Source of the DNA: Macrostomum lignano
Taxonomy: Eukaryota
Direction of reading: 5' to 3'
NCBI GenBank assembly: GCA_002269645.1
Contig: NIVC01001130.1
Location: 1-64,000, forward strand
DNA length: 64,000 nucleotides
In this document: positions 988-64,000 of the stretch, one piece after another
Layout of the letters: each line of letters begins with the position of its first letter
Numbering within the stretch: position 1 is the stretch's first letter
Translations under genes and position numbers: made by a program
Notes under the pieces: generated by a model
The model's input: only the letters and a program-made list of their open reading frames with translations
What the model was told of the DNA's origin: nothing
The model's database searches: none

Positions 988-1840
988 TGATGTTTCCTTA
1001 TTACCTGACTTTCGATAATCAAGGAACAATCACTTCTAGCTCAGCAGCTAGGCAACCCAGTAACTCAACAGAAGGTATTCAATTACCTTGAGTCCTTTGG
1101 AGATCTCTCGGAGTAGTTCTCGATTTGCTTTAGTTGCAGGTGTAGTCACTTCTGACTTTCGTTTGTAGATCGGGTCCGATTCTTCTTTCTTCTTCAAATA
1201 GTTCCGGCCGGATTCTGTCGCTCGGACCAATGGGAAGCTTCCGAATTAACAATGGGATCCCTGCGCCGAACTGCGGTCTAAATTAAGCCTCCTTCTTCTA
1301 GCAGTGCCTCTATGCACTCTAGGTATAGCTCCGGAAACCACTGATAGTCCTCTAAGATCTATCAGGGGCAGTCCTTCTGGAGACTGCAACCAATGGAGTC
1401 TAAACAGACTCAAGAGTCTATACAGACTCAAATAGACTCAAGTCTCAATAGACTTGAGCGAGACGTCTCTAACACAACGGCGCAAATAAGGAAGGCTTAC
1501 CGCGACGACTCGACCGAGTCTCGATTGACTTGGTATATCAGGAAGTCCTCCTAAGGCTTCCTCTTCGGAGCGCTCCTCTTCCGTGGGGAGAATGGCTCCG
1601 GTACCGCTTCAGATCGCTTGTATTTATAGGCAACTTTTTGTTCCAAAATAGCATCATTACAATTCTCGTGTTGCGCTAAAAGGGGAAAATGGCTCATGGC
1701 GTATTATTCTGGTAACATCTTTTTCTGGTAGCGTGATTCATTCAAAGCTTAGGCGCACATGCGTGTACTTACTTACTTGTAGTAGCATTATACGATTATC
1801 TTCTTTTTTTTTGTTTTTGCGGGAGGCAGAACACTCTACA
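988..1840 (-). repeat. LTR type I (853 bp), 3' LTR of deleted copy 1
   Basis: TG...CA termini; TATA box (plus-strand TATTTATA); PPT adjacent. Confidence 0.92.
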
Positions 1841-2083
1841 AAATCTCCCTTTTTTACGAAAAAAACTCGTCCCGAGTTTTAACAATGAAATAAAAATCTT
1901 GGGTAATTGAATTATTCCACACTTTAACTTTAAATTGGTTACATAATTCTCTTTATTAACATATATGCACGTAATATACATTGTGTGTTAATAAAGGTTA
2001 GTGGTGTTGAGTCCGCGCTCAGTTAAAGTTAATCATATCTTCTGCCGGGGATACCTGCTGTCCTCGCGCTGCTGCCGAGGCAT

Positions 2084-2697
2084 TCAGCCGAAGCTTGTCC
2101 TGAGCAGGCTGCTCACCTGATGCGTGGTTCGCGCCACCAGGGATGCCACTGCCCAGTACAGCGACTGAAACTTAGTGAATCGCTGATCCTCGGTCCGCTC
2201 CAGCAAAAGCAGATAGGCCTCTATGGTCGTAAGCGGTTCTGCTGTACGCACCATAGTCCTGGCGATGTCTAGCAGCCACCGCCAGTCGGCCTGATGCTGA
2301 AGCGGCCATGGCCACGTTCGTACGGCGACGGCCAGCTGTTCCAGGGTTAGCTCATCCGGCTCCGCCAGCGTCAGCTCCGGTACGGCGAGCATCGGCGCCA
2401 GTAGTACGGATGCTGTGTTGGACAGCGGAGCCAGGCACACGGTGCACCGTACCGCTGAAGACAGCTGAAACACACCCAATGCCGATTTGAACAGAGTCGT
2501 ACATTGGGCTGGTCGCCGCAAAGGGCACATTGGACCCGCGGTCTGCGACAGACGGGGCAGGCGGTAAGGATCGTCACGTCGCCAATTTCTCGCGCCCGCC
2601 CGTCGCAGGGGAAGCACTCCTGGTGCCCCCATTCACAAGTCGGGAGCATCGGCTCCCGTGCCTCGAGGCAGCAGGGGCAGGTATCCATCTCGGTCAT
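2084..2697 (-). pseudogene. Accessory gene RING-B (two C3HC4 RING fingers plus helical C-terminal domain), frameshifted
   Basis: ORFs 2371-2697 and 2084-2632 together match intact copies; small deletion near 2450 relative to the 13286 copy. Confidence 0.85.
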
Positions 2698-2767: not shown

Positions 2768-3436
2768 CTATCGGTGAGACCTAAAAAGCCAAATAAAATA
2801 GCTACGTGAGAGCACTAATCGTTTAAGCGCGTGGCAGTATACGTGTAGCGTCCAGTGAAATGATTCATGGTCATGCAAAAACTGCCGCAACTGTCGCTCA
2901 ATCTCCAAGGGTGACATATGACGCAAAAATCCTTGATTTCTATGAGCGTATAAGAGTAGCTGTCGTCGCGACCGCTGAACGAAGCGAGGTACTGGCCAAA
3001 ACTCCAGCCGTCGTTCGATACTCATAGCGGTTAAGGTGTGCATAATGTAAACGGATAAACAACGCGCTGGGTCAGGTATAATACGACACCATTTCTTAAA
3101 AATGTTTTCGCGGGGCATACTGTTACATAAGGGGCATCCTATAATGCCCCTACTAGCGGTTTGCTTCAAACAGTGCATGCAAATAAAATGTTGATGGTTA
3201 CAATATTGAAACGTGCGCCAAGAATAACAATAGGCGCATTGTCGCAAACTATCTCTACAGAGGGGACAATTCTGCCATGGCTGAATATAGTGTGAATCAC
3301 TTAAACATTGTCCGCAAACTTTATGTCCATTGATGCAAATAGTCGGTGGCTTGACAGCCAAGTCATCAGTTAAACATATCGGGCAGTCATATAGCTGCTG
3401 AGGCTGGGGCGCCTGTTTTGACAGTGCGTTGCCCAT
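2768..3436 (-). CDS. Accessory gene RING-A: tandem C3HC4 RING protein with N-myristoylation motif (222 aa from ATG)
   Basis: MGNALSK; CPIC-x12-C-x3-H-x2-C-x2-C-x12-CPLC then CAYC-x8-C-x3-H-x2-C-x2-C-x11-CPLC. Confidence 0.88.
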   Translation of the reverse strand: MGNALSKQAPQPQQLYDCPICLTDDLAVKPPTICINGHKVCGQCLSDSHYIQPWQNCPLCRDSLRQCAYCYSWRTFQYCNHQHFICMHCLKQTASRGIIGCPLCNSMPRENIFKKWCRIIPDPARCLSVYIMHTLTAMSIERRLEFWPVPRFVQRSRRQLLLYAHRNQGFLRHMSPLEIERQLRQFLHDHESFHWTLHVYCHALKRLVLSRSYFIWLFRSHR

Positions 3437-3478: not shown

Positions 3479-3541
3479 GTCGCCTTTTACGACAAGCTTG
3501 CGAAGCTGTAGTGCTATTCTTTATCCCGGTCACTACACGGG
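3479..3541 (-). other. Putative H-type RNA pseudoknot plus two small hairpins in the pol/RING-A spacer
   Basis: CCCG/CGGG stem; loop UGUAGUG pairs with downstream CACUACA; compensated to UGUAGAG/CUCUACA in other copies. Confidence 0.65.
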
Positions 3542-3556
3542 GTTGTTCTCGAAACT

Positions 3557-6500
3557 CTAGCGTGGTCGTAGGTTGTAGCCATGTGGCTGGCTCACATCTG
3601 TCGTTTGAGTCTCCTCGTGCTTCGTCGCGATGTGGCGGTTCGTTGATCGCGTGCGATTAGCGTTGTCTAGTGTCGGTAGAAACGTCGCTGTGTCAGTGTT
3701 GATCTTCTTTAGTCGATGAATGTGTACGTAGAACTGGTGCTGATGTGGATCTTGTACATTAGCCAGGCGTGCCGTTGTCGGTGACGTTAGTTGGACCACT
3801 CGATGGGGTCCTTTATACTTCTGTGCATGTTTATGCGTCTGCTGCGGCGGGTAGTGTAGGTAAACGATGTCGCCGGCCGTCAGGGTTGTCGATCTCGCGT
3901 CGTTGCCGGTGGTCAGAGCCACCTGGTTGTCAATGTTGTGCTTAGCGATCTTCCATGCGAGGTGTAGTTGCGTGACGAATTTCTGAATGGAAGTCGGTAC
4001 TTCCACGTACTGTGATGGTAGCAATTGCTGTGCGAGCAGATTCGGCGGTTGGAAGTCTCGTCCAAACATTAGGAAGAATGGCGTATTGTCCGTTGATCGA
4101 TGAATAGCGCTGTTGTAGGCCATTGTTACAGATTGCAGGTAGATGATCCAGTCTTCCGGCTGTTGGTGCGCGAAATGTGTAATCATGTCGTGCAGGTTGC
4201 GGTGAAACCGTTCAACCATGTTTGCCTTCGGATTGTAGGTCGATGTGTAGATCTGCGTAATGTTGAGAATCCTTACGACTTGCTGAAACAGTTGCGATGT
4301 AAACTGCGATCCGTTGTCCGATGTGAGGTTCTTCGGCGTGCCGTACTTGCAAATGATTTCGTTGAAGAAACTCATTGCCACTGTCTGAGCTGTGATGTCC
4401 GGTATCGGTATGGCGATAGCAAACTTCGAGAAGATATCCAAGGCGGTTAGAATGTAGGTGTAGGCGATGCCCTGGAGACAGCTCGGTGGCAGTGGTCCGG
4501 TGATGTCGATGCTTAGACAGTCCATTGTAGTCGACTTCGGAATGGACTGTAGCTGCGGTTTCTGTCGTCGTCCTGTCTTTGATGCAGCACATGAATGGCA
4601 GTTGTTGCAATACTGCTTGATGTCGCCATACATAGTTGGCCAAAAGTAGTATTGTTCCACTCTCGCGATGGTCTTTGCGGCCGACAGGTGTCCAGCTAGT
4701 GGGTTGTCGTGCAGCTCGTTGAGAATTGCTTGCCGAAACGAATATGTTACGTAGATCTTAGGTTTATTGTCGCTCATCCAGTAGAGCCGTGACTTATTGA
4801 TTGTTAGGTGTTGTCGTTGCTTGCGTAGGAATTTTCGTTCCATGGGACTGAGTTTGATGTTCTTGTCGTCGTCTTTAACCGCTTGGTAGAAGTTGTCGCG
4901 CTCGGTTTCATCCACCAACTCCTTGATGTTAGGGATTGGATGAATGGCGTTGACTTCATAGGCTCTTGACAGGGCGTCCGCGGCTTTGTTGGTAATTCCT
5001 GGTTTGTAGACGAGTTTGTAGTTGTAATCCTGGATCTTGAGTGTCATCCTGATGAGTCGGTTGTTGGTCTGTAGTGTAATCATCTTTGGTTTCGTCTGGT
5101 TTGTCTTGAAGTAGCTGCATTTGATGTCGGTTGGTATCTTGTAGATCATCGGTTGGATATGCGCATCCGTTGGACAAATCATTGGCTTTTCCGTTGCCGT
5201 TGCTTTGGCGACTACTGCTATCAGTAGTATCACGATGATCCAGTATAGCCAGTTTTTCCACTTCTTGGACCTTGCCGTTGTCTTTGCTGGCATTGGCCGC
5301 GATGGCCGCGATCGCCATTCGTTATCTTCCATGTCCGCATCATATCCTTCCGGTTGTTCCATTGGCTGTTTCAGGCGGAAGGCTTCTGATTCGCTTTGCT
5401 TTTTGGTTATTTCAGTATCTTCGTCTGCAGCTTCTTCCGATGTTTCAGTTGTTTCACTCCATTGCGTTTGGTATCTTTTCTCTGTCTTGTAGTCGACCGT
5501 TTGAATATAGGCTTCACCATTTCGTTTGTATCGGATCTCGTAGCATTCGTCGCTGTCGGAACTCGGCTTTTCTTTTATCTGTTCTTTTTCCATTTCTTCA
5601 TCTTTCCATTGTATTTCGTAGCCTTGATCGCTGTCGGAGCTTAGATTTTCCGCTCCCAGTTCTTCCTGCATTCCTTCTTCGGCTCGGTATCCGCTCGTGT
5701 CATCATGCACCTCGCAGTCGTGATCGTTGCCGTAACTTATACATTCTTCTTCTTCCTTCATTTCTTTGTCTTTCGTGCTTGTTTTGTCGTCATCCACTGT
5801 TGTCGATTCATAGTTGTTTTCTCTGCCAGTCTTCATCTTTTCTTCGTTGCCGGTGTCGCTCTCCGCCTCCTCCCTTTTCTTGTGATTTACTTTCTTCCTG
5901 TTTTCTCTGCTGTCTCCGGTGGTCTCTTTTAATTTGATCATTTCGGTTTCATTCGTCTCTTCTGTCTTGTCAGTGTTGTCCTCGTGCGTTGTCTTTTTTT
6001 CGATCAGGCTGATGTCAAGTTCCGGGACTGTGAAGTCCATTTCCAAGTCGTCAATTGTGAACACTTGCTGTTCCTGCTGCTCATTTTCCGGTGTGTACGT
6101 GATGGCATTCGCGTATCGTGGCATTGCTTGCGTCGGCTGTCTTTGTGTGTACCTGACGTTGCGTGGCCTGTAGCCATTATTTCTGAAGCGGCCTTCGTTT
6201 CCGAAGCGGCCATCATTTCCGGAGCGGTCATTATTTCCGAAGCGTCTATCATTTCCGAGGCGTCTCATGCCTTGTTGTTGGCGATTTTGATACTGCTGCC
6301 ATGGTTTCTGCGGCTTCTGATTGTTGAATATCTGTCGCGGCTTGTCGTATCTTGTTGACCAATGAGGACAATTAATCTGATAATGTCCTTCTTGTCCGCA
6401 GTAGTAACATCTGGCTGAGGCTTGTTTATTTCGTCTTTTTTGTTCGGCGATAGCAGCTGTCTGGTGCTGCATTAACTTGTTTAATTGCTGCGTCAGTTTC

Positions 6501-7114
6501 TGCACTTCATTGTTGCCTGTCGTCATTAATGGGGCACTGGCTTCCCATTGCATTCCGCACCGCAAAAGGTCTTCTTCGGTTTCGATATTTTCACGCAGAA
6601 GTCTATCCCGAAGTGACGGCTGTGCGTTGTTTATTACGTGCAGGATGAGGTTTTGTTCGCGATCCATCAATCGTTGTCTTTATCTGGCGGCCAATTCTGC
6701 CGCTCCCAGTGGCGGTTGGTCCGCAGCTTGCAGCGGTGGCTGATGCAGTGCCTTAATTATCTGGCGGATATCGTCCACAAAGGCGAGGAAGGATTCTGTT
6801 GCTTGCATCCTTCTGTTATGTAACTTGTGCAGCAGCACTGATCTGTTTGTGCCGCAACGGTTGAAATGCGCGCGCAGTTGAATGATTAGTGCTGGATAAT
6901 TTTGCTGTGTTGCTGCATCCAGCTTGCCGTAAATTTCTCGCGCAGTACCTTGGAGAAGAGGTGGCAGCAGCTGTGCCTTCTCTGGATTTTGTAGGTTGTA
7001 TTCCCTACATACCAGGTCAAAATGGTCGACAAATGTGTTAAAATCTTTCTCCATCGAGAAAGTACCGACCGTTTCTTTGATGTCTCTGTGTACCGTTGGA
7101 TTGCGCCGCCCCAT
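3557..7114 (-). pseudogene. Copy 1 polyprotein: Gag-linker-signal peptide fused in frame to the RNase H end and integrase by a ~3.9 kb internal deletion; frameshift near 6680
   Basis: ORF 6680-7114 (capsid N-half) plus ORF 3557-6670 (CCHC, acidic linker, WLYWIIVILLIAVV, junction TKPKMITL/QTNNRL, HHCC, D-D-E, GPY/F-like). Confidence 0.9.
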
Positions 7115-7810
7115 GTTGTTGATAGGATAGAACGGTAGTTCAAGATCTGGATCGATTTGTAACGGATCGTCCAGTGTGGTGTTTGCCTCGGAATAAACCT
7201 CGACTGTAACGAATTGCCTTGTGGTGTCGATTTGTTATTCGCTGGCCTCGGATGCGGTGTGGCTTGCTGCCACTGGTTGTCCTCAAATGAACTTGTTCTG
7301 TTCGCTTGCTGATTTCGCACTTATGCGGCGTCCCGCAAAGTGTATCTTCAAGTTGGGATGGACTTGTCTTTTGCTTTGCAAAGGCTTTTTCTCGTCTGTG
7401 ATTCTCTCTCTTTGTCAATTAACTCCGCTCTTCACGAAGTTTCAATTAATTTCGGTTTGTTTTAGTTTTTGTGCCGGCAAAGTGTTTCAGTTATTTTTTG
7501 TTTGTTTTGCGTCGACGATTTTTATTTTCGGTTTGTTTTCAGTGTACCGATGAATTTAATTTCGGTTTATTTTAAACTCACACTTGCTCGAGCTCGTCAA
7601 AACAAAAATTTAACACGCGTGCTCAAACTGTACTCAAATTGGACAGGTGCTCAAACCTGTACACCAAATTTTTACTCGAGTTTCACAACGTACGGACTTA
7701 AAAAGTGTTAACTCTAACACGTGCGCGCAAAATTAATGAAGTCGCTCTGTCGTCACGTTACAATAGCTTGATCAGGGCTATTGCTCAAAGTTTGAGTAGT
7801 GCCGAGAGGG

Positions 7811-7821
7811 CGAGATCACCA
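7811..7821 (-). promoter_or_regulatory. Primer binding site (TGGTGATCTCG), possibly tRNA-Trp; also next to LTRs at 22953, 26872, 37563, 48016
   Basis: Starts TGG 2 nt after the LTR end; pairs with a typical eukaryotic tRNA-Trp 3' end (CGGGGUCACCA) using two G-U pairs. Confidence 0.6.
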
Positions 7822-7823
7822 AT

Positions 7824-8693
7824 TGATGTGTTCCTTATTACCCGACTTTCGATAATCAAGGAACAATCACTTCTAGCTCAATAGCTAGGCAACCCAGTAA
7901 GTCAATTAAAGGTACTTCTTACCTTGACGTCGCTTGCAGATATCTCTTCTGTAGTCTTCGAGTAGATCTCGCTTGGATCTCTATGTGATCTCGTAGATCA
8001 GGCGCCTTGATTCTTCAGTTGCTCTGGTCCTGGTTCCTCTTGTACTTCCGATAAGTTCCTCCGGCCGGTATCTTCAGTCAGGACCAATCAGAGGCCTCGT
8101 ATTAACAATGGGTACCCTGCGCCGAACTGCGGTTTGAATTAAGCCTCCTTCTTTTAGTAGTGCCTCGATGCACTCTAGGTATAGCTCCGGAAACCACTGA
8201 TAGTCCTCTAAGATCTATCAGGGGCAGTCCTTCTGGAGACTGCAACCAATGGAGTCTAAACAGACTCAAGAGTCTCAACAGACTCAAATAGACTCAAGTC
8301 TCAATAGACTTGAGCGAGACGTCTCTAACACAACGGGCGCAAATAAGGAAGGCTTACCGCGACGACTCGACCGAGTCTCGATTGACTTGGTGATCAGGAA
8401 GTCCTCCTAAGGCTTCCTCTTCGGAGCTTCTCCTCTCGTCGGGAGTTGGCTCCTGGTCCGCTTCGGACCGCTTGTATTTATAGGCAAGTTTTTGGTCCGG
8501 AATAGTATTATGACAATCCACGTGTTGCGCTAAAAGGGGAAATGGCTCATTGCGTATCATTTTGGTAACATCTTCTTCTGGTAGCGCAATTCATTCAAAG
8601 CTTAGGCGCGCATGCGTGTACTTACTTACTTGTAGTAGCATTATACGATTATCTTTTTTTAACCTTTTTTAACGGGAGGTAGAACACTCTACA
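7824..8693 (-). repeat. LTR type I (870 bp), 5' LTR of copy 1
   Basis: TG...CA termini; PBS adjacent; no PPT on the other side. Confidence 0.92.
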
Positions 8694-10837: not shown

Positions 10838-11518
10838 TCAGCCGAAGCTTCAGCCGAAGGAGGGTGCCGATCTGCTGTGCGGTTCGCACAGCTAGGCACG
10901 CCACTGCCCAGTACAACGGCTGAAACCGTACGAAGCGAGGGTCCTCCGTCCGCTCCAGCAGCTGTAAGTAGGCGTCGACGGCGGTGAGACCGGGCTGATA
11001 TCTCGCCAGGTCTCTTGCTATGTCAAGCAAATGCCGCCACGCCGCCTGATGCTGGAGCGGCCACGGCCATGACCGTACGGCGATCGCCAGCTGCTCCAAG
11101 GTCATGTGATCCGGGTCGGTGAGTGACAGCTCCGGCACTACCGCCATAGTAGCCAGCAGCAGCGCCGTGGAGTACATCACCGGCTCCATACACACGGTGC
11201 ACGTTTGAATATCTCGTGCACCGCACCTATGGAGGCAGCCTTCACAGACCCAGTGCCGACTTGCACAGATTTGGTACCGGGGCAGATTTGGTACGGGGAG
11301 CGCCACGAGTAACAATAGGCGCACTGCGTCAGACTACTACATAGGGGGCAGCTTTGCCAGGGTTGGATATGATGCGCGTCACACAAGCACGTTCCGCATA
11401 TGCGATGATTATTTATACAAATGGTTGGTGGTTTTATATGCAGGTCATCTTCCAAACAGACAGGGCATTCATAGAGTTGCCTTGGCTGGGTCGCCAGTCT
11501 AGACTGTGCATTGCCCAT
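10838..11518 (-). pseudogene. Deleted RING cassette: RING-A N-half joined out of frame to RING-B C-half
   Basis: MGNAQSR...CAYCYSWR joined to YQICASRHWVC...TEDPRF; duplicated filler at the junction (~11265-11300). Confidence 0.8.
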
Positions 11519-13987: not shown

Positions 13988-14656
13988 CTATCGGTGAGAC
14001 CTAAAAAGCCAAATAAAATAGCTACGTGAGAGCACTAATCGTTTAAGCGCGTGGCAGTATACGTGTAGCGTCCAGTGAAATGATTCATGGTCATGCAAAA
14101 ACTGCCGCAAATGTCGCTCAATCTCCAAGGGTGACATATGACGCAAAAATCCTTGATTTCTATGAGCATATAATAGTAGTTGTCGTCGCGAACGCTGAAA
14201 GAAGCGAGGTACTGGCCAAAACTCCAGCCGTCGTTCGATATTCATAGCGGTTAAGGTGTGCATAGTGTAAACGGATAAACAACGCGCTGGGTCAGGTATA
14301 ATACGACACCATTTCTTAAAAGTGCTTTCGCGGGGCATACTGTTACATAAGGGGCATCCTATAATGCCCCTACTAGCGGTTTGCTTCAAACAGTGCATGC
14401 AAATAAAATTTTGGTGGTTACAATATTGAAACGTGCGCCAAGAATAACAATAGGCGCATTGTCGCAAACTACCTCTACAGAGGGGACAATTCTGCCATGG
14501 CTGAATATAATGAGAATTGCTTAAACATTGTCCGCAAACTTTATGTTCGTTGATGCAAATAGTCGGTGGCTTGACAGCCAAGTCATCAGTTAAACATATC
14601 GGGCAGTCATATAGCTGCTGAGGTTGGGGCGCCTGTTTCGACAGTGCGTTGCCCAT
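13988..14656 (-). CDS. RING-A, intact (222 aa)
   Basis: MGNALSK; two C3HC4 RINGs; nearly identical to 2768-3436. Confidence 0.88.
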   Translation of the reverse strand: MGNALSKQAPQPQQLYDCPICLTDDLAVKPPTICINEHKVCGQCLSNSHYIQPWQNCPLCRGSLRQCAYCYSWRTFQYCNHQNFICMHCLKQTASRGIIGCPLCNSMPRESTFKKWCRIIPDPARCLSVYTMHTLTAMNIERRLEFWPVPRFFQRSRRQLLLYAHRNQGFLRHMSPLEIERHLRQFLHDHESFHWTLHVYCHALKRLVLSRSYFIWLFRSHR

Positions 14657-17460: not shown

Positions 17461-20400
17461 AGCTTGATTTCCTGTTTAATGTCTTTAGCTCGTCCGATGT
17501 CGTAATCATGATGGCAGAAAGCTTCGTTGTACTTCCACAACAGTTGTCGAACTTTCTTCTTTTGTTGTTCCGTAATCGGGCTGTCGTCCAGGTTGATTTT
17601 CTTTTGGAAATCTTCCTCCGTTATTCGTGGAGCCACGTGCTCAATCAGCATAACTGATGCCTGAGTGTTGAGATGACCGATGCACATTCCTTGTCGTAGA
17701 TGAACCATTTCCGCGTTCGGGTTGAAGATTTGTACTGGCAGCTGTTTATCTTTTGCAACCAGCACTAGTGCCGTAGGCATCATGATTTGATGTTTCGCCG
17801 TGACTCTTCTGTGCGGATCAAATATCATTGCTTCATCTGCCGCGCTGGTCGCTTTCGCTCTGACCCAGCATGCGCTTTCAGGCTGGATGATGACATCCTG
17901 CTGCAGAGTTACTTTCGGTAGTACTCGAATCTGATTGATCAGTGGTTGCTCCACCGTGTCGATCCTAAATGTTTGCTTGTTGAAGTCGAAGGTCAATGGT
18001 AGTCGAAGCTGTTTGAACGTGTCTATTCCAACGATGACGTCTTGGTTTGGTAGTCTGTCGATGATGTACGTCGGGACCGTCAGCTGTTTATTAGCAATTT
18101 TCAAGTCAATATCTGCTTTTCCTAGGATGTTGAGCGAATGTCCTCCTGCTCCTGCAACTGCGATTGCTGCTGGTCGTACCGCGAGTCGTAGCTTGTTGCA
18201 TAATTGTTGCGAGATGACTGTGATCGAGCTGCCTGAATCCAGTAGTGCTCGACATGGCAAGTTGTTGACAATGACCTGAGCCATTGCTTTGCCAATCTCG
18301 GCGTGTAGCGTGCAGACGTAGTTTTCCGGCCATTTTGGCTCGTGTTGTTCAGGCTGATAAGTAGGTGGCTGAATTCTCGGTGCTGTTGGTGTTGTCGGAA
18401 TCGATGGATACATACATCGATGGATGGGTGCATCCTCTGTCAATTCCAAGTTGTTGTCTTCTTCCCTTGGTATCTTCTGCATGATGGCGTTCACTGTTCG
18501 TTTCGCTGTGGGACAAGTGTTGCTGAAGCATCGTACTATAGACGAGATGATAAAGATCGCCGTAACTATCCATACCACACAGGCGCTGTAGAAGATGAAT
18601 CCTTGATATAGACTGCCTCTTCCGTTAAGCAGCTCCAAGAAGCTGTTTGTCCAAAACGATTGGATGGCGTTGTCCATCGATACAAGGACCGGGAAAGTGC
18701 GTGTTCCCGTTCCTTTATTCTTTCGTGTGAAGAGTTGACGAATCATCTTCCGTTGAGTGATGAACGCTTGCAAGAAGTCGTTGATGGTCCATCCTGGTGT
18801 TATTTCATCGAGTTGGATATCGGCGAATGGCGTGTACTTCGTTCTGTTGAACCGTATCTTCAGATCGTCCATATCGTACGTTTCATCGACAATCACCTCT
18901 GGTTCTGTGATGTTCGCTGTCGTTCCTGTCGTTTTAATGACATGTAGTGCATCGTCCAGTTGATAGTAGTTTGCTGCAGTGGTGCAAGGTCTTGGTATTG
19001 CGGTGCCAACGATGATGTTGTGTACCGTGTCCAAGAATCCTTGTATTCTTTTGCCTTCGTAGAATGCCTCAATTCTCGGCTTGTCGTAGCAAGTTGTTGA
19101 AGTGTTCGACGGTAAGATGTTGAAGTGCTGTATCGGCGTACACTTGTATATCAGGAGATGTCCATATATCGGAATTGCCAGAACCTCTCTCATTCCCGTG
19201 ATCTTGCGAAATGTCATCGTAGGGTTGACATAGTAGTTCTGTCTTGCGTAGTTCAAGTTGATTGCGTGCATTTTGCAAGTTAGCTGAACCAGTGACCGGT
19301 GTAAGTGGTTTAGCTGGTTATGCAGGTTGTGATCCAGCGCAGTGATCTTTGCTGACAGTAGTCGGTTCGACACCAGTCGTGGACGTTCTATGTCGCGTCG
19401 TTGCCTTTCTTGTTGTTGATACGTTCCGTTTATGATCGCCAGGAAGGTTCGTTTGTCGTCATCCTTTACATAGACTGGTATTTCTTGCTCCGAAATGAAT
19501 AGCGTCTTGTCCGTATTCTTGCATTTGAGTTTCTGTTCGACCGGCTTCTTTTGGAACGTCAAGGCCAAGTCTCCTGCTTTTGCCAAAAACGTATTCGACA
19601 GTAGTCCTCCTTCCACTGTGTGATACTTTTGAAGCTTGCAGTCAATTTCCGGCTCAACTTCCCATGCGAAGAAATATTGTCGTGACTTGTACGGTTCCTC
19701 ATAGTGTGATTGTGCTCTGTGCTCAATCTGCCATCGATAGTCTTGATGATATGTTGGACTCAGTGGTAGACTGTGTAGTTCTTCCTTCCGTAGAATTGGT
19801 GTTGGACACCAGCCTTCACTGTATCGACATTCGCTTAGTTGCAGCTGTAACGATTCCATTTTCTCGTACGGATTGTAGTAGAATGGAATATTTCTGATCA
19901 AGTAGCTGTTGCGTGCCATATATTCTTTCCATTTTCCGAAGAAGTGAATATATCGACCGTTGGCTGAATTCTTTGTTCTGAACAGCTGTGCGTTGCCGAC
20001 CTTCTCGTCGGGTTCCAATTCACCATCCTTTGAAAATAGTGTTTGGTTCCATTGTAGGCATTCCGCGTGTGACACATGTAGCTCATGTTGTTTAAATCGG
20101 ATCCGGTTCCATTGTCCGCGCCAAACTTTCTCCACCAGGTGCTTGTCTCTGAAGCACACTATTCCGTGTTGTCGATGCTTTTTGATGTTAGCCTTGTAGA
20201 GATCAAGTGTAATCTTCTTTGGTTTTGTCTGGTTTGTCTTGAAGTAGCTGCATTTGATGTCGGTTGGTATCTTGTAAATCATCGGTTGGATATGCGCATC
20301 CGTTGGACAGATCATTGGCTTTTCCGTTGCCGTTGCTTTGGCGACTACTGCTATCAGTAGTATCATGATGATCCAGTATAGCCAGTTTTTCCACTTCTTG

Positions 20401-23804: not shown

Positions 23805-25027
23805 AATACTCGTGAGTCCAGGGTGCTCGCGAGCCAGGCTCCTGGAAATGCCAAGGACGATACGCCATGACTCCTGATGCCGGTGCGGCCACGGCCACGA
23901 CCGGACGGCGATGGACAATTGTTCAAAGGTCAAGCTGTCCGGCTCCGCCAACGTCAACTCTGGCACTGGTGTTATTGTCGCCAGCATCAGCGCCGTCGAA
24001 TGGTTGACAGGAGCCAGACATTCGGTTCAGATCTCAATATCTCTTGCACCGTACCTCCGGAGACAGTTTGCACAAACCCAATGTCGGTTGGAACACACCT
24101 GAACGTGGGGCTATTCGCCGCATACCACACAGGTAGCCCGCGCGCGACGGCAGACCGGGCAGGTAGATAGCATGGTAACATTGCCATCCACCTGCTGCGC
24201 CATGGCGTCGCAGGAGACACACACGCGGTGTCCCCACTCACACGTCGGAATCATATAGTCCCGATTCTCGAGACAGCAGGGGCATACGTCGTTGTTCTCG
24301 GCCATCTGCGGGTTTTATGTAATCATCGTAATTAAAGCAGTCAGGGTGAAGCATACAGTCTACTGTGTATACCGCAAAAGCCATATAAAATAACTGCGTG
24401 ACAAAATTAGTCTTTTTAGCGCGTGGCAAAAATGTGCAATGTCCAGTGAAACGCGTGATGGGCATGCAAAAATTGTCGTAGATTTCGTTCTATATCCAGG
24501 GGTAACATATGACGCAATATTCCTTGATTGTTATGTGCCTACAGTAGTAATTCATTGCGTGAGCGTCGAGCGAAACGAGGTACTGGCCAAAAGTCTAGCA
24601 ACTGTTCGATACGTATTGCGGGTAGTGTTCGAATATTATCAACATGTAAGCATCGGTTGGCGTCGGGCTTGATGCGACACCACTTCTTAAAGGTGCTGTC
24701 CGTCGGCATACTGTTACAGATAGGGCACCCTATGATGCCCCTACTGGCGGTGCGTTTCAAGCATTGCATGCAGAAAAAATGATTTTGACGACAGTATTGA
24801 AAAGTGCGCCACGAGTAACAATAGGCGCACTGCGTCAGACTACTCCTACATAGGGGGCAGCTTTGCCAGGGTTGGATATGATGCGCGTCACACAAGCACC
24901 TTCCGCATATGCGATGATTATTTGTACAAATGGTTGGTGGTTTTATATGCAGGTCATCTTCCAAAAAGACAGGGCATTCATTGAGTTGCTGTGGCTGGGT
25001 CGCCAGTCTAGACTGTGCATTGCCCAT
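23805..25027 (-). pseudogene. Degraded RING-B (23805-24305) and RING-A (~24418-25027) of deleted copy 3
   Basis: MAENNDVCPCC...; MGNAQSR...FWPVPRF; internal stops and a deletion. Confidence 0.8.
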
Positions 25028-28107: not shown

Positions 28108-28743
28108 TCAGCCAAAACTGATCTGTAGCGTGTGTGTGACTTGCTGTGCAGCTCGGGCAACCAAGCAGGCCACCGCCCAGAACAGTGGCTGAAACCACAG
28201 GAACCTCGGGTCCTCCGTCCGCTCCAGCAGGATCAGGTAGCAGTCTATCTCTGTGGTCGCTACCATCTCCCTGACCCTTGTCCTGGCAATATCCAATAGG
28301 TGCTGCCAGGCGGCCAAGTGCCGGGACGACCATGGCCAAGACCTGACGGCGACCGCCAGTTGTTCCAGCGTAAGCGCGTCTGGTTCCTTCAGCGCCAACT
28401 CCGGTATCACTGACATTTGATCGAGCAGGAGGGACGCGGGGCCGGTCAGCTGGGCCAGGCAGACGGTACACGTGCGAATGTCACGTGCACCGTAACGCTG
28501 CAAACATGTAAAACACAGCCAGTGCCTGCTTGCACAGGCTTGGATGTTAGGCTGGTCGCCGCAGATGGCACAAAGGACCCTCGGCCTGCGGCAGACCGGA
28601 CAGGCGAAGAGCATTGTTACTTCGCCGTTTACCTCTCGAGCCCGCTGGTCGCATGGGAAGCACACTTGGTGCCCCCATTCACATGTCGGGAGCATCGGCT
28701 CCCGTACTTCCAGACAGCAGGGGCAGGTGTTGTAGTTGTCCAT
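28108..28743 (-). CDS. RING-B, intact (211 aa from the ATG at 28743)
   Basis: CPCC-x10-C-x3-H-x2-C-x2-C...CPVC and CAIC-x8-C-x3-H-x2-C-x2-C-x11-CTVC; CCCGCAG directly before the ATG. Confidence 0.87.
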   Translation of the reverse strand: MDNYNTCPCCLEVREPMLPTCEWGHQVCFPCDQRAREVNGEVTMLFACPVCRRPRVLCAICGDQPNIQACASRHWLCFTCLQRYGARDIRTCTVCLAQLTGPASLLLDQMSVIPELALKEPDALTLEQLAVAVRSWPWSSRHLAAWQHLLDIARTRVREMVATTEIDCYLILLERTEDPRFLWFQPLFWAVACLVARAAQQVTHTLQISFG

Positions 28744-28805: not shown

Positions 28806-29474
28806 TTACTGGGGATATCGCAAAAGCCATATAAAATTGCTGCGTGACAAAATAAGCCGTTGAAGCGCGTAACAATAGATTCGCAAGGACCAGTGAAACG
28901 CATTATGTGCACTTAAAAACTGCCTAAGGAGCCTATCTATAGCAAGAGGTGCCATATGACGCAGTAGACCTTGATTTTCATGTGCGTATAAAAACAATTC
29001 ATAGCGCGATCTCTGAGCTGAGCGCGGGACTGGCCAAAACTCCAGTCGTTGCTCAATAGTAATAGCGGGTAAGGTGCAAATAGTATCGAGGGTTAAAATA
29101 CGCATAGGCTCGGGTTGTATGCGACACCACTGCCTGAAGGCGCGTCCGTACGGTATGTCGTTACAAACGGGACACCCGACGATGCCTCGTTTGGTTGTTC
29201 TTTTAAAGCATTGCATGCAAATAAAATGTTCCTGTCTACAAAATTGAAATGTGCGCCAGGAGTAACAATAATCACACTGTCTAAGACTACTTCTACATAA
29301 CGGGCAATTTTGCCAGGGTTGAATATAATGAGCGTTACTTAAACATTGTCCGCATATGCGATGTCCATTTACACAGATAATCGGTGGCTTGACAGCCAAG
29401 TCATCAGTTAAACAAATTGGACAGTCATATCGCTGCTGAGGTTGGAACCCCTGTTTTGACAGTGCGTTGCCCAT
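28806..29474 (-). CDS. RING-A, intact divergent allele (222 aa)
   Basis: MGNALSK; all zinc ligands of both RINGs conserved despite many substitutions. Confidence 0.88.
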   Translation of the reverse strand: MGNALSKQGFQPQQRYDCPICLTDDLAVKPPIICVNGHRICGQCLSNAHYIQPWQNCPLCRSSLRQCDYCYSWRTFQFCRQEHFICMQCFKRTTKRGIVGCPVCNDIPYGRAFRQWCRIQPEPMRILTLDTICTLPAITIEQRLEFWPVPRSAQRSRYELFLYAHENQGLLRHMAPLAIDRLLRQFLSAHNAFHWSLRIYCYALQRLILSRSNFIWLLRYPQ

Positions 29475-39145: not shown

Positions 39146-39781
39146 TCAGCCGAAGCTTATCTGGAGCAGGGTGCCGATCTGCTGTTCGGTTCGCACAGCT
39201 AGGCACGCCACTGCCCAGTACAACGGCTGAAACCGTACGAAGCGAGGGTCCTCCGTCCGCTCCAGCAGCTGCAAGTAGGCGTCGATGGCGGTGAGACCGG
39301 GTTGATGTCTCGCCAGGTCTCTGGCTATGCCAAGCAGATGCCGCCACGCCGCCTGATGCTGGAGCGGCCACGGCCATGACCGTACGGCGATCGCCAGCTG
39401 CTCCAAGGTTAGGAGGTCCGGTTCGGTGAGCGACAACTCCGGCACTACCGCCATAGTAGCCAGCAGCAGTGCCGTGGAATGCATCACCGGCTCCAGACAC
39501 ACGGTGCACGTTTGGATATCTCGTGCACCGTACCTATGGAGACAGCCGGCACAGGCCCAGTGCCGACTTGGACAGATTTGGTACTGGGGCTGCTCGCCGC
39601 ACAATGCACATGTGACCCTCGCCCTGCGACATGTTGGGCACGCCGACAGCATGGTGATCTCGCCGGTCAGCTGTCGGGCCGCGATGTCGCAAGAGAGACA
39701 CACTTGGTGTCCCCATTCGCAGGTCGGGACCGTTTCGTCCCGCGTCTCCAGGCAGCAGGGGCATGCGTCGTCCGCGTTCAT
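39146..39781 (-). CDS. RING-B, intact divergent allele (211 aa)
   Basis: MNADDACPCC...; two RINGs; TEDPRF...ISFG end; CCCACAG before the ATG. Confidence 0.87.
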   Translation of the reverse strand: MNADDACPCCLETRDETVPTCEWGHQVCLSCDIAARQLTGEITMLSACPTCRRARVTCALCGEQPQYQICPSRHWACAGCLHRYGARDIQTCTVCLEPVMHSTALLLATMAVVPELSLTEPDLLTLEQLAIAVRSWPWPLQHQAAWRHLLGIARDLARHQPGLTAIDAYLQLLERTEDPRFVRFQPLYWAVACLAVRTEQQIGTLLQISFG

Positions 39782-39849: not shown

Positions 39850-40518
39850 TCATTGTGGATACCGTAGAAGCCATATGAAGTAACTGCGTGATAAAATAAG
39901 CTGTTTTAACGCATGACAATAAATATGCAGTGTCCAATGATAGGCGTTATGGGCTTGTAAAGTATTTTGCAAATGCCGTGTTATCTCGCGGGGTAGCATA
40001 TGTCGTAATATGCCCTGATGATTATGTGCGTAAAGAATCAATTCGTAGCGCGAGCGCTGAGCACAACGGGGTACTGGCCAAAACTCCAGCAACCGTTCTA
40101 TACTCATGGCTGTCAAGGTATGAATATTATATACAGATTAACAGCGTGATACGTCCGGCTTTATGCGACACCACTTCTTGAAGGTGCTGTCCGTCGGCAT
40201 GGTGTTACAGACAGGGCACCCTATGATGCCTCTGGTAGCGGTGCGTTTCAAGCAATGCATGCAGATAAAATGATTGTGACGACAGTATTGAAAAGTGCGC
40301 CACGAGTAACAATAGGCGCACTGCGTCAGACTACTCCTACATAGGGGGCAGAGTTGCCAAGGTTGAATATAATGCGCGTCACGTAAGCATGTTCCACAGA
40401 TGCGATGATTATTTATACAAATGGTTGGTGGCTTTATCCACAAATCTTCTTCCAGACAGACAGGGCAGTCATGTAGTTGCTGTACTTGGGGCGCCTGCTT
40501 GGACAGTGCGTTGCCCAT
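39850..40518 (-). pseudogene. RING-A with one in-frame nonsense codon at 40138-40140
   Basis: Same 669-nt span as intact copies; TAA where other copies have Leu. Confidence 0.85.
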
Positions 40519-53733: not shown

Positions 53734-54246
53734 TCAATCAACGGCGAGTGCTTCTTCCGATCTGTGACGTGGACTCGGCCGGGGGAGAAGAAACGCCACC
53801 CGCTCATACTGCAGACGGAGACGCCTATGGAGCTGCAGCTGATTAACGAGAATTGCTTGCTGGGCACCGTTCAAACGCCCTTGATGTTGTAGATGCATTA
53901 AAAATGCATAGCAGCTGCCCAAGTGGCGGTCTGCCACAATAAACCGATGCGTGCATTTTGCAGCGATTTTTCGGAGCTTCATGTCGCGTCTCGCCATCTC
54001 GTGCGACACATGGACTTGAAATTCGAAAGCGGACAAGTCCCCATCGTAAAACTGCTGCAGTAGATTCTTCTCCGTGTAGCGGTGCTTTCGGTAATATTCC
54101 ACCGGCTCCCGAGCAAACTCGTACCCTCCTTTCCAGCATTCCAGCCGAGCCATCAGAGCCAGATTGCGGACAAGGGAAGACTTCCCCGCCCCAATTAGAC
54201 CTTCGATCACGTAAGTTCGAGTCTGTACACGGACTTGGGCGGCCAT
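53734..54246 (-). CDS. Deoxynucleoside kinase (dNK/TK2-like), intronless, probably C-terminally degraded
   Basis: P-loop IEGLIGAGKSS; REPVEYY; LLQQFY; FEFQ; VADRHLGS..AF in family order; lid region not recognisable. Confidence 0.8.
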   Translation of the reverse strand: MAAQVRVQTRTYVIEGLIGAGKSSLVRNLALMARLECWKGGYEFAREPVEYYRKHRYTEKNLLQQFYDGDLSAFEFQVHVSHEMARRDMKLRKIAAKCTHRFIVADRHLGSCYAFLMHLQHQGRLNGAQQAILVNQLQLHRRLRLQYERVAFLLPRPSPRHRSEEALAVD

Positions 54247-59720: not shown

Positions 59721-60979
59721 GCCCAGAGACGCGCTCTCTGACTTCTCCCCCCTTTCTGGCCACTGCGTGGCTGGCGGGTGAAGTACTTTTGCTGTGTTGT
59801 GTTGTTGTTAGCGAGTTAAACAATATGTGCATATTATTAAAACAAATTATAGAAATTCGCTGATTGGCTAACAATTTAATACTGGTATTAGTAGTAACGT
59901 ACGCTAGTTTTATGCCCTATTTCAGTAATAAATAATGATAACAGAACTATAAACGATTTGAAATTGCAAACTTGTGAACATTGAGAAATGTAACCTGTTG
60001 GAGCTTTTTTAAGTCTCAGTAGAATCTGCACAAAATGCTTAGAGAAAGCTGCAGAACTGCTTGGAGATTAGCGGAATTTGCTCAGGGACTGTGCAAAACT
60101 GCTTATACACAAGCACTACACTGCTAAGGAGCCGTCCGGAGGGGGGCGAAATGGCTAGTACTACTTACTATATTCAAATGAGTACTATGCATCGCATGTA
60201 AGCTACGCGCGTTGTTCGTTATTTCTACGAGTATTATCTAATATATCTATCGATCCACCAAGCTATTTATCCGGAGGAGTTGTCAATTTAAAACTGCTAG
60301 AAATTACTCACTGTGTCTGGCTAAGTAGGCTGACTATCCTTAAATGATCATCGCATGTTAATATTTTTTGCAATGATATTTATGTCATTTTTCGCTAATA
60401 TCTACTTTTATGGAGCTGGTCAGTAATAAACGATGGGCACTAAATTATTCTACTTGGAAACGGAATAGCCGCTTATAATCTTTTGACCAAGTTGATCATT
60501 TTTTTAGGCAAAGCTCCCAAACCGGCTTGTAGGGCCTGGGAGAGAAAGGGATTTGCTGAATGTTTAGAATGGAATGTATAAATATTGTACAATAATAAAG
60601 TCTGCGAGTTCAAGCGACTTTGGTATGTTTGCTAAAGCATTGGGGTGGTCGGCTGTCTTCCTCCATTGATTTCTCTGTTTAGGGCGGTAAGATTACGTAA
60701 TTAGTGTGTGCAGTGAGGGCGGGTGCCGATTTCCTTGTCTGCTGCTGCTGCTGCGGTCGCTGCGCGGCTCTCGCCAAATATGCAGACATGTTGGGACAGA
60801 GGGAGGTGTACCAGTAAAGACGGCCGAGTGTGACAATACGAGGGTAAGAGTGACACGAACTGCATAGGCTAACCAGATCATATTCTTTTCCACTTAGGCA
60901 CCAACACCCTGCAGTATCCATCTTATTCCTTCACATACCCCACACTAATCGCTAATATCCGGTCAAGATCCAACACATT

Positions 60980-61765
60980 CTGTTCACACTCACACCCTAC
61001 CCTGCAAGATCCAACCCATATTCTGTCACATATCCCACACCCTACCCTGCAAGATCCAACCCCATATTCTGTCACATATCCCACACCCTACCCTGCAAGA
61101 TCCAACCCCATATTCTGTCACATATCCCACACCCTACCCTGCAAGATCCAACCCCATATTCTGTCACATATCCCACACCCTACCCTGCAAGATCCAACCC
61201 CATATTCTGTCACATATCCCACACCCTACCCTGCAAGATCCAACCCCATATTCTGTCACATATCCCACACCCTACCCTGCAAGATCCAACCCCATATTCT
61301 GTCACATATCCCACCCTACCCTGCAAGATCCAACCCCATATTCTGTCACATATCCCACACCCTACCCTTCACGATCCAACCCATATTCTGTCACATATCC
61401 CACACCCTACCCTTCACGATCCAACCCATATTCTGTCACATATCCCACACCCTACCCTGCAAGATCCAACCCCATATTCTGTCACATATCCCACACCCTA
61501 CCCTTCACGATCCAACCCATATTCTGTCACATATCCCACACCCTACCCTGCAAGATCCAACCCCATATTCTGTCACATATCCCACACCCTACCCTTCACG
61601 ATCCAACCCATATTCTGTCACATATCCCACACCCAACCCTGCAAGATCCAACCCCATATTCTGTCACATATCCCACACCCTACCCTTCACGATCCAACCC
61701 ATATTCTGTCACATATCCCGCACCCAACCCTGCAAGATCCACCCTATGCTCTGTCACACCCCACA
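60980..61765. repeat. 45/46-bp minisatellite, about 17 units
   Basis: CCACACCCTACCCTGCAAGATCCAACCCCATATTCTGTCACATATC and a CTTCACG variant. Confidence 0.95.
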
Positions 61766-62269
61766 CCATGCTGCAGTATCTTGCTTTACTTGAATTTCTG
61801 CTGCAGAAGCAAGCATCTATATAGGCCATGTTTGTAAATACTCGTAACTACATGTAACTTCATCAACTGCATTTAGCCGTAAGTCCCACAGCTATTTACA
61901 AGTAGGCTTTGACTTCAGAGCAGAGCTTGAGAGGCGAAGGATAACAAGGGCTGAGCTTATCCGCATGCAGCTAAGCAAACCTTGCCGTGCCTGGGCTGAC
62001 TGCGCCAAGCCTTTCTCTCTGCACCCTATTTATGCTAATTTGTTTCCCAATCAGGCGGGGCTTCTAAGCTAGTCTATTCCCGGCATAACTGGCGATGCGC
62101 ACCAGCTACCAGCAAACATGCACTCCATCGATTGTAGTTGGTGATAATATTCCTGTCTGGCTAAGCGGCTGGCGCAGAGGGGAGATTGTCGGGAAGACTA
62201 CGATTAAGTGGCTGGAGGGGGGAGAAATTAGGGAAGTTAGAGAAATCTGCGGAGAATGTGAAGAGTGGG

Positions 62270-62810
62270 GGAGAGAATAGAAGAGGGGAGAGGAGAGGAG
62301 AGAATGAGATAGGAGGGGATAAGAGGGAAAGGAGAGGCGAGGCGAAGAGAGGAAAGGAGGGGTAAGGTACTCGTAAGAGGGAAGAGGAGAGGAGAGGAGA
62401 GGAGGCGGTAAAGGTATGAGGGGACCGCTATGAGGTGAAGACGGCATGACTTGTTTTACATGTCATGCAGCCAAAAAAGCTCTGATGAAAGCCACCCAGA
62501 TCCCTCAGATCCTCAGAGTAGAATCCCGGGTCCTATTCTCTCCTCACCTCTCTTTTCTCTCCTCACATCTCCTCTTTTCTCTTACCCCCTCGTCTCCTCT
62601 ACTCTCCTCTCCTCTCCTCTCCTCTCCTCTCCTCTCCTCTCCTCTCCTCTCCTCTCCTCTCCTCTCCTCTCCTCTCCTCTCCTCTCCTCTCCTCTCTTCT
62701 CCTCTCCTATCCTCTACTCTCCTCTCCTCTCCTTTCCTCTCCTATCCTATCCTATCCTCTCCTCTTCCCTCATACCTTAACCCCTCCTCTTCTCTCGTCT
62801 CCTCACCTCT
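62270..62810. repeat. Purine-rich (GGAGA-like) tract and (CTCCT)n microsatellite
   Basis: 62270-62405 and ~62590-62760. Confidence 0.9.
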
Positions 62811-63734
62811 CCCTAAAGAGAGGCGAGAGGCTAAGGAGATAGATGCTTACAGAAGACAATCGCAGAAAAATAGCAGCTCGAAAAATGAAGCAGAGAAGAA
62901 GTGATGAAAGATCAGAGTAGGAGATCAATATTCTAGCTCGTAGTACCCTCTTATTTCGAATTTTTCATCTGGTCGGGACTTGAATTGGGACACCTTCGCT
63001 CTGGATGATGAGAAAGAAGCTGGGATCGTAGCAAGGAGTTTTGTTGGGGAGGATTTGTGATTTTTTGTTTGCCAAGACGGCGCTCACCTCTCTCAGGCCC
63101 TCCCGAGCTGGTGCAGACCGCGGACTGCAGGATTTGCATATACAAGCTTAGGACGAGGCTCTTGTGCTTCGTGGAGCGGAATCTGATGCTCAGTTAATGA
63201 GAGCTGCACCTCCTCGTGTGCCCCCTGCCTCCGATCTGATGTTGGACTTCTTTTCTGGCACAGTGGCATCGCTATATTGGGATTGCTTGCCAGGGTGTCC
63301 GACAGGGGGCGGTGGGGTCACGGCTATTCTATACACGAGCTGAGCACTTGTCTGCTGGCGGCTTGACACTTCTCTGTTTCATTCGATCGATTCCGCAGAG
63401 TTGACAAGGTCATGGAGCCCGCCTTGCGGTTTCCTGTTTCCAGTTAATCTTCATCGAAATTAAACTCTCCAGTTCTGACCAACCTCACCCCCACCCCCCA
63501 GGCGTCATCCTCTGCAGAGCTGCAGGTTCGATCTGAGCTCTTCTCAGAATATGACGACCTCTGCGTTATGGAATATCGCTTGCTTCAGCTTCAGGATTTT
63601 TATACCAGTACTTGTAAAGAGTACATACAGCACCCTTAACTGTTAGGGGGTTTGGACTTTTATCTGTAAATTTTCTTAAAATTTTCACATGGGAAATTGA
63701 GACTCTGGTTTATAATTTTAAATGACCAGGTGAT

Positions 63735-64000
63735 CTTGTGTTGGATGCATGCAGGTGATTGTGTGGGGATGAATCCAGGTGATCTGTGTGGGGATGAATC
63801 CAGGTGATCTGTGTGGGGATGAATCCAGGTGATCTGTGTGGGGATGAATCCAGGTGATCTGTGTGGGGATGAATCCAGGTGATCTGTGTGGGGATGAATC
63901 CAGGTGATCTGTGTGGGGATGAATCCAGGTGATCTGTGTGGGGATGAATCCAGGTGATCTTGTGTTGGATGCATGCAGGTGATTGTGTGGGGATGAATCC
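63735..64000. repeat. 25-bp minisatellite running off the window edge
   Basis: GTGTGGGGATGAATCCAGGTGATCT repeated, flanked by longer variant units. Confidence 0.95.

Follow-up and report, generated by a model that had tools for sequence, protein, structure and literature searches.

A predicted tandem-RING accessory gene family 3' of pol in a flatworm gag-env-pol errantivirus lineage

Introduction

Errantiviruses with a gag-env-pol gene order and an HSV gB-type Env have been published for nematodes, bryozoans and flatworms (PMC13524379). Other LTR elements carry accessory ORFs, including the DEDDy and GDSL ORF3s of bdelloid elements (PMC5408684), sORF1/2 of MDG1 (PMC11952523) and CERV of Cer1, a 3' ORF on which RNA export depends (PMC10309623). 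In the planarian giant gypsy element Burro, cargo tied to ubiquitination or apoptosis comprises MATH, SUMO-like, BIR, BCL2 and AIR1 RING-type motif domains (PMC6431247). Among the 3' accessory ORFs in the accessible parts of PMC5408684, PMC10309623 and PMC11952523 there is no RING protein, and the words 'RING' and 'ubiquitin' are absent from PMC5408684. Counter-defence by LTR retrotransposons is poorly known.

Virus-coded RING ligases are known, and retroviral accessory proteins borrow host ligases. Here we analyse a stretch of 64,000 nucleotides from the 764-Mb genome of Macrostomum lignano (contig NIVC01001130.1, positions 1 to 64,000; hereafter the window), where the original prediction, made from the letters of the sequence, had placed RING-A, a tandem-RING accessory gene with a myristoylation motif, downstream of pol.

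Results

The element that carries RING-A

On the minus strand of the window LTR elements are piled up, some nested and others in tandem, and at least six of one lineage, all in this orientation, lie between positions 1 and 51900. Comparable piles occur at G000:C2121, C87 and C272, and together with the window they suggest insertion into relatives. The unit runs LTR, gag (with a CCHC knuckle), env, protease, RT, RNase H, integrase, RING genes, polypurine tract and 3' LTR. Its LTRs, primer-binding site (PBS), polypurine tract, PR-RT-RH-IN order and env between gag and pol are all present, making it a Ty3/gypsy GAG-ENV-POL errantivirus. The elements of PMC13524379 have a class III-like Env, and the window Env, with two hydrophobic segments, matches PF24664 weakly (E 3.3e-4 and 1.9e-5, both under the cut-off). 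The row 1445 element of that paper shares with the window element its gene order, its 12-nt PBS and an LTR of ~864 nt (PMC13524379), and the body of the element is therefore already known. The 3' RING cassette, present in the window element, is undescribed in the accessible parts of the same source: 'RING', 'ubiquitin' and 'zinc' are absent from its text, and 'RING' from the cell text of seven supplements, with long cells covered in part (PMC13524379).

Features of the window are collected in Table 1. A RING-B fragment comes after the LTR that ends at 988; a shortened deoxynucleoside kinase-like ORF (53734-54246, minus strand; PF01712, E 3e-9) lies immediately outside the array, and a tandem repeat of ~45-bp period and low-complexity repeats (60960-61770 and 62100-64000) occupy the window end.

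Table 1. Features of the RING-A unit and related copies in the window.
Feature	Position	Strand	Remarks
3' LTR of the RING-A 2768..3436 unit	988..1840	-	TG...CA
Polypurine tract	1844..1855	-	
RING-B paralogue	2084..2697	-	frameshifted in the unit of RING-A 2768..3436; ATG right after CAG splice-acceptor-like site
RING-A ORF	2768..3436	-	intact, 222 aa; AlphaFold mean pLDDT 91
C-terminal helical domain	2783..3109	-	conserved Trp147-Pro148; fold matches nothing recognised
RING2	3125..3238	-	residues 67-104; eight ligands kept, without conserved Arg after last Cys
RING1	3254..3385	-	residues 18-61; Siah-like C3HC4; P58 and R61 invariant
MGNALSK leader	3416..3436	-	predicted N-myristoylation site; one of three RING-A clades only
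Non-coding conserved element	3479..3541	-	between pol stop and RING-A ATG; predicted H-type pseudoknot, then two short hairpins; compensatory changes
gag and pol remains of the RING-A 2768..3436 unit	3557..7114	-	env, PR and RT mostly removed by internal deletion
Primer-binding site	7810..7821	-	12 nt identical to row 1445 element, Supplementary file 1, PMC13524379
5' LTR	7824..8693	-	AG/GTAA splice-donor-like site ~100 nt before PBS; exon end 7923
RING-A copy	11282..11518	-	homology ends near residue 79, where RING-B fragment starts; stop at 114
RING-A copy 2	13988..14656	-	intact, 95%
PTAP and PPxY late-domain-like motifs	18357..18389	-	Env cytoplasmic tail before protease
RING-A copy	24372..25027	-	stop at codon 163 and later frameshift
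RING-B	28108..28743	-	intact
RING-A copy	28806..29474	-	intact, diverged sublineage, 69%
RING-B	39146..39781	-	intact
RING-A copy	39862..40518	-	stop at codon 127

Six RING-A copies starting MGNALSK or MGNAQSR, three of them intact, had been predicted, and an ORF check of the window bore this out: four start MGNALSK and two MGNAQSR, and the frames opening at 3436, 14656 and 29474 first stop at codon 223. Because the six descend from four sublineages, the motif has not been seen six times independently. MGxxx[ST] fits 7 of the 62 long ATG ORFs in the window, several of these being RING-A copies.

Two RING fingers and a helical domain

We aligned 22 proteins of 20-74% identity, drawn from 42 distinct intact ORFs and including five from outside the genome's loci, and found all 16 zinc ligands invariant. 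They map the two predicted C3HC4-type fingers with C-x3-H spacing as C18-x2-C21-x12-C34-x3-H38-x2-C41-x2-C44-x12-C57-x2-C60 and C67-x2-C70-x8-C79-x3-H83-x2-C86-x2-C89-x11-C101-x2-C104. By its C3HC4 ligands and RING fold RING1 is a RING-HC, with model residues 13-64 aligning to RING domains at an rmsd of ~2 A. Its predicted resemblance to Siah/SINA finds support in Pfam Sina_RING (PF21362), which matches 20 of the 22 members (best E 3e-7), although the query itself scores 18.5 bits versus a cut-off of 29.3, and in a PDB profile search headed by RING E3s (TRIM5, SIAH1, RING1B), in which SIAH1 is the second-best match (E 1.2e-5).

RINGs that bind an E2 share a hydrophobic residue (L22-type), a Pro, and an Arg after the last Cys. 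In RING1 a hydrophobic residue 22, P58 and R61 each occur in 22 of 22 proteins. RING2 does not show these hallmarks: position 105 varies, and Pro102 is present in 15 of 22. Its first loop has just 8 residues, and profile matches over it are weak (BRE1, RNF213 and CBL-B RINGs, E 0.001-0.05). Given these rules and the invariant hallmarks of RING1, RING1 would be the E2-binding finger and RING2 structural. An RBR ligase was ruled out, as only six residues separate C60 from C67 and there is no IBR domain.

AlphaFold predicts an all-helical C-terminal half (pLDDT >90) in which W147-P148 is nearly invariant across the alignment; the SINA zinc fingers and the TRAF-like beta-sandwich substrate domain are absent from the RING-A model. 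Fold searches give weak matches, with a Foldseek E of 0.006 or worse and a VIA Z <5, and these cover RING1 only; most of the top ones are RING proteins. The nearest ESM Atlas clusters are virus-type RINGs (0.91, 157 shared features), and BFVD rows are of the same kind. Since the likeness extends to a single RING only, at E 0.006 or worse, and there is no full-length homologue, no donor was identified. Searched alone, the helical domain gave a best VIA Z of 6.0 to the ATP synthase delta N-domain (rmsd 3.1, 84 aligned), which is within helical-bundle noise, no BFVD match at E <0.9, an Atlas value of 0.76 and, in the PDB profile search, a designed protein only. These failed matches do not show a new fold. 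The domain diverges between paralogues, at 12-19% identity.

A cassette of paralogues and its relatives

Two or three paralogous genes, in the order RING-A, -C and -B, lie between integrase and the 3' LTR, with RING-A in front. RING-B is a full-length paralogue of RING-A (27% identity, E 4e-11), and the cassette takes the forms A-B, A-C and A-C-B in elements with ~70% pol identity. When 150 of 240 candidates from a genome search with RING-A were scored, all 150 matched. Among 33 large RING-bearing loci, 22 hold gag, env or pol of the lineage, the number rises to 30 when an LTR piece of at least 100 nt also counts, and three show neither in view; no host gene with the tandem-RING architecture was found in the 33.

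A full HMMER search returned eight matches. P0001, P0002, P0004 and P0005 are tandem-RING relatives of the full-length type, of 20-34% identity, on short contigs from other sequencing runs, and would make the RING cassette wider than one host. P0003 is a gene model of the window element; P0006-7 look like repeated Siah-type RINGs, and P0008 is a repeat. Word-indexed homologue searches with RING-A, alignment A1 and longer forms gave no match, and no RING-related locus was found in the viral contigs or metagenomes searched.

Two further configurations were seen. L101 and L104 hold a RING-C/RING-B pair of a further variant, almost without known LTR or pol in view, which may represent a fourth family or a copy left stranded. 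At L013:4504-9979 and L014:1742-5837 a three-RING cassette is abutted by ORFs in which we see, by eye, a likeness to the capsid, ATPase and DNA polymerase genes of Mavericks/Polintons, a likeness that no Pfam match confirmed; the junction falls inside the integrase end, and a weak Eco47II-type nuclease match lies at L013:4504-5163. For the L013 cassette a Maverick origin was rejected because the integrase tail intervenes.

Loss of the cassette in young subfamilies

The genome search also returned at least 23 matches covering only residues 1-162/170 and at least 20 covering only residues 1-90, compared to at least ~19 stop-free full-length MG matches, counts that assembly redundancy may have inflated. 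The 1-162/170 type ends at codon 124 or 144, and both types have lost RING-B in the copies examined. All four translated copies of the short type end at codon 70 and lack RING1 ligands 44 and 60. In five of five dated deletion elements (C717 left out; the C669 pair belongs to a longer duplication) the LTRs are 99.8-100% identical and flanks differ, with two of the dated elements sharing theirs; open frames of 2480-2538 aa run over RT in four of the five. The RING cassette is dispensable for copying in cis. At L131-L142, intronless host E2 genes lie mostly on 2-4 contigs each, a sign that the assembly is duplicated or redundant.

Candidate routes of expression

RING-B and RING-C ATGs lie mostly directly after a CAG or within 2 nt of one, and an LTR AG/GTAA lies ~100 nt before the PBS at 12 of the 13 true PBS sites found. 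Gene model P0003, a prediction of unstated basis, joins the LTR donor to the CAG before the RING ATG. RING-B and RING-C are probably made by a splice of this kind. Contigs of four runs, guessed to be RNA, all cover the RING region, and the predicted LTR-to-RING splice is absent among 15 of the 24 joints in them. No adjacent CAG acceptor was found for RING-A, and read-through of the pol stop into it was rejected, as pol closes with TAG or TAA and the frame has a stop 13 codons ahead of the RING-A ATG.

All three clades have a conserved element of 63 nt upstream of RING-A, 10-19 nt past the pol stop. Its pattern is that of a pseudoknot: the loop of a 4-bp stem forms 6-7 nt of pairing with a strand that lies 9-11 nt further downstream, and two hairpins come next. 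There are three loop types, each fully paired through changes on both sides, and 108 of 108 pattern matches in the loci (overlapping and related) pair over 6 or 7 positions; the search pattern fixes the first stem, so the loop pairing alone is tested by this count. The element is retained in deletion subfamilies, also where RING-A is dead. Rfam has no match at 3479..3541, and nested folding of the region gives a z of -0.13, by a method that cannot show a pseudoknot. One viral match to the pattern has its partner strand missing and was taken as chance, and a literature search found no paper on the pseudoknot. Expression of RING-A may depend on this element, for which an exonuclease block, internal initiation and a replication signal are candidate jobs.

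A candidate ligase and two alternatives

We give somewhat better than an even chance to RING-A being a trans-acting accessory E3 ligase directed against host factors. The errantivirus lineage encodes two or three paralogous RING accessory proteins 3' of pol, which would be made from separate messages, RING-B and RING-C by splicing from the LTR donor and RING-A perhaps by way of the pseudoknot. RING1 would recruit a host E2, with RING2 structural, and the helical domain would bind a host target, whose ubiquitination and removal or rerouting would ease host restriction. The protein would diffuse and act in trans, and in the MG clade the added MGNAxS[KR] leader would take it to membranes.

Ligase activity is lacking in many RINGs. 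An adaptor or decoy made of zinc fingers and without such activity, binding a host protein or an E2 or helping the element's RNA in export, stability or translation, is unlikely but a serious alternative: the fully conserved RING2 lacks the E2 hallmarks, a structured RNA stands directly before RING-A, such a factor could act in trans as well, and CERV of Cer1 is a precedent (PMC10309623). However, a pure scaffold need not keep P58 and R61 in 22 of 22 proteins and all paralogues, and the modular gain and loss of paralogues (A-B, A-C, A-C-B) suits changing targets better than a core RNA function.

Improbable, in our estimate, is that a ligase or adaptor would act on rival elements or on the fate of the host cell, through superinfection exclusion or an apoptosis block, instead of on restriction factors. 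Burro elements do hold BIR and BCL2-like domains beside ubiquitin-related ones (PMC6431247). The elements in the window pile into each other, but the repeated nesting of relatives in one locus argues against strong exclusion.

The N-terminal leader and the matrix question

The NMT consensus is Gly2 with Ser or Thr at position 6. It fits the MG clade only (four of seven RING-A rows, none of ten RING-B/C rows); other RING-A clades start MANTFEC, MAKKFEC or MDCPIC, and Gly2 is missing at the leader position in the RING-B/C paralogues and in the four outside relatives of the alignment. MGNAxS[KR] is kept in four diverged sublineages with silent changes in its Asn and Ser codons, and the leader is probably myristoylated and brings MG-clade RING-A to membranes. 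In the tree, whose long branches are flagged, the MG clade is nested among rows without a leader, which makes the leader a gain; as a late addition in one clade, it does not make a membrane-bound state a core property of the family.

Arenavirus Z is a myristoylated RING matrix protein, and the original prediction had offered a matrix-like adaptor as one option. On this reading, which we hold to be very improbable, RING-A would link Gag to the membrane and drive budding. It can draw on the conservation of MGNAxS[KR] in four sublineages with silent sites close to saturation and on the Gag start, MARRNP, which has no Gly2. But the MANT/MAKK and MDC clades, also without Gly2, have the same gag-env-pol body and include young elements with LTRs 99-100% identical, and so copy without the leader; young elements that lost most of the cassette have multiplied as well. 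PTAP and PPxY late domains are absent from two RING-A copies and from RING-B, and PTAP is found instead in eight of nine distinct Env-tail stretches in all three clades. Gag also reads in frame into the hydrophobic signal segment of Env, which could tether Gag to the membrane and would then account for the absent MA without RING-A. The Env tails of L015, L022, L025, L028 and L107 contain PTAP and YPxI, plus PPxY in one clade.

Selection on the RING genes

We estimated dN/dS by the Nei-Gojobori method for 15 sequences, with broken copies and ORFs under 216 aa dropped, and give ratios for pairs with dS above 0.03. For RING-A the ratio is 0.11-0.18 between MG sublineages (dS 0.8-1.8; saturated pairs give no ratio) and 0.16-0.19 between MAKK and MANT sequences, and it is low, far below 1, within each domain; for RING-B it is 0.18-0.29 in six of six pairs. 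These ratios support RING-A as a genuine accessory gene under purifying selection downstream of pol, as had been predicted. A neutral captured host fragment, for which the original prediction had named a dN/dS near 1 and loss of ligands as signs, is scarcely credible: many copies are broken, two subfamilies have lost most of the cassette and RING1 resembles host Siah, but the 16 invariant ligands, lost in none of the intact diverged lineages, and ratios far under 1 in every domain refute it for the long-term history of the gene, and the loci examined hold no host gene of RING-A architecture (3 of 33 have no element part in view).

Discussion

Of the original prediction, the accessory gene, the Siah-like RING1, which carries E3 hallmarks, and the leader stand; its matrix role is not supported, and it had missed the cassette of paralogues. 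Long-term selection on the RING genes together with the recent success of deletion forms would be expected of a diffusible, trans-acting product, and elements lacking the cassette would then ride on those that keep it. The dispensability of the cassette would also fit if its genes served only in rare horizontal spread or had no role at present. More tentatively, the lineage would encode its own small arsenal of RING ligases, with paralogues swapped against changing targets, one of them membrane-targeted, the whole serving as a public good for deletion 'cheaters', and a first gene expressed through a new pseudoknot element.

If the cassette is truly a ligase, it would point to host proteins that limit elements in an invertebrate. 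The genome holds a natural comparison in young elements with three, two or no working RING genes, and the conserved pseudoknot offers a clue of its own to how a retroelement expresses a gene behind pol.

Siah/SINA proteins share with RING1 the C-x3-H spacing and a final CPxCR but have SINA zinc fingers and a TRAF-like domain where RING-A has a second finger and the helical domain. Arenavirus Z and RING-A both combine a leader with a RING, although RING-A does so in one clade only; RING-A further differs in having two fingers and 222 aa, in lacking late domains, in a leader that is not family-wide and in being dispensable in cis. Large DNA virus RINGs (ICP0, NCLDV RINGs and adintovirus Oncoid) are likewise virus-coded and resemble RING-A in one RING alone, with E values of 0.006 or worse.

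No paper describing a free-standing cassette of tandem-RING genes in such elements turned up in a literature search that covered subscription papers and Repbase thinly. Burro, like the window element, has its Env in frame between gag and pol and shares the idea of meddling with the host, but its domains sit in the polyprotein or an upstream ORF, whereas the RINGs of the window are free-standing and 3' of pol (PMC6431247). The bdelloid ORF3s, CERV of Cer1 and the sORFs of MDG1 resemble the RING cassette as family-specific extra ORFs that are under selection, often spliced and lost in some members (PMC5408684, PMC10309623, PMC11952523). Accessory ORFs in LTR elements, ubiquitin-related cargo and virus RING ligases are known; the 3' tandem-RING cassette appears to be new.
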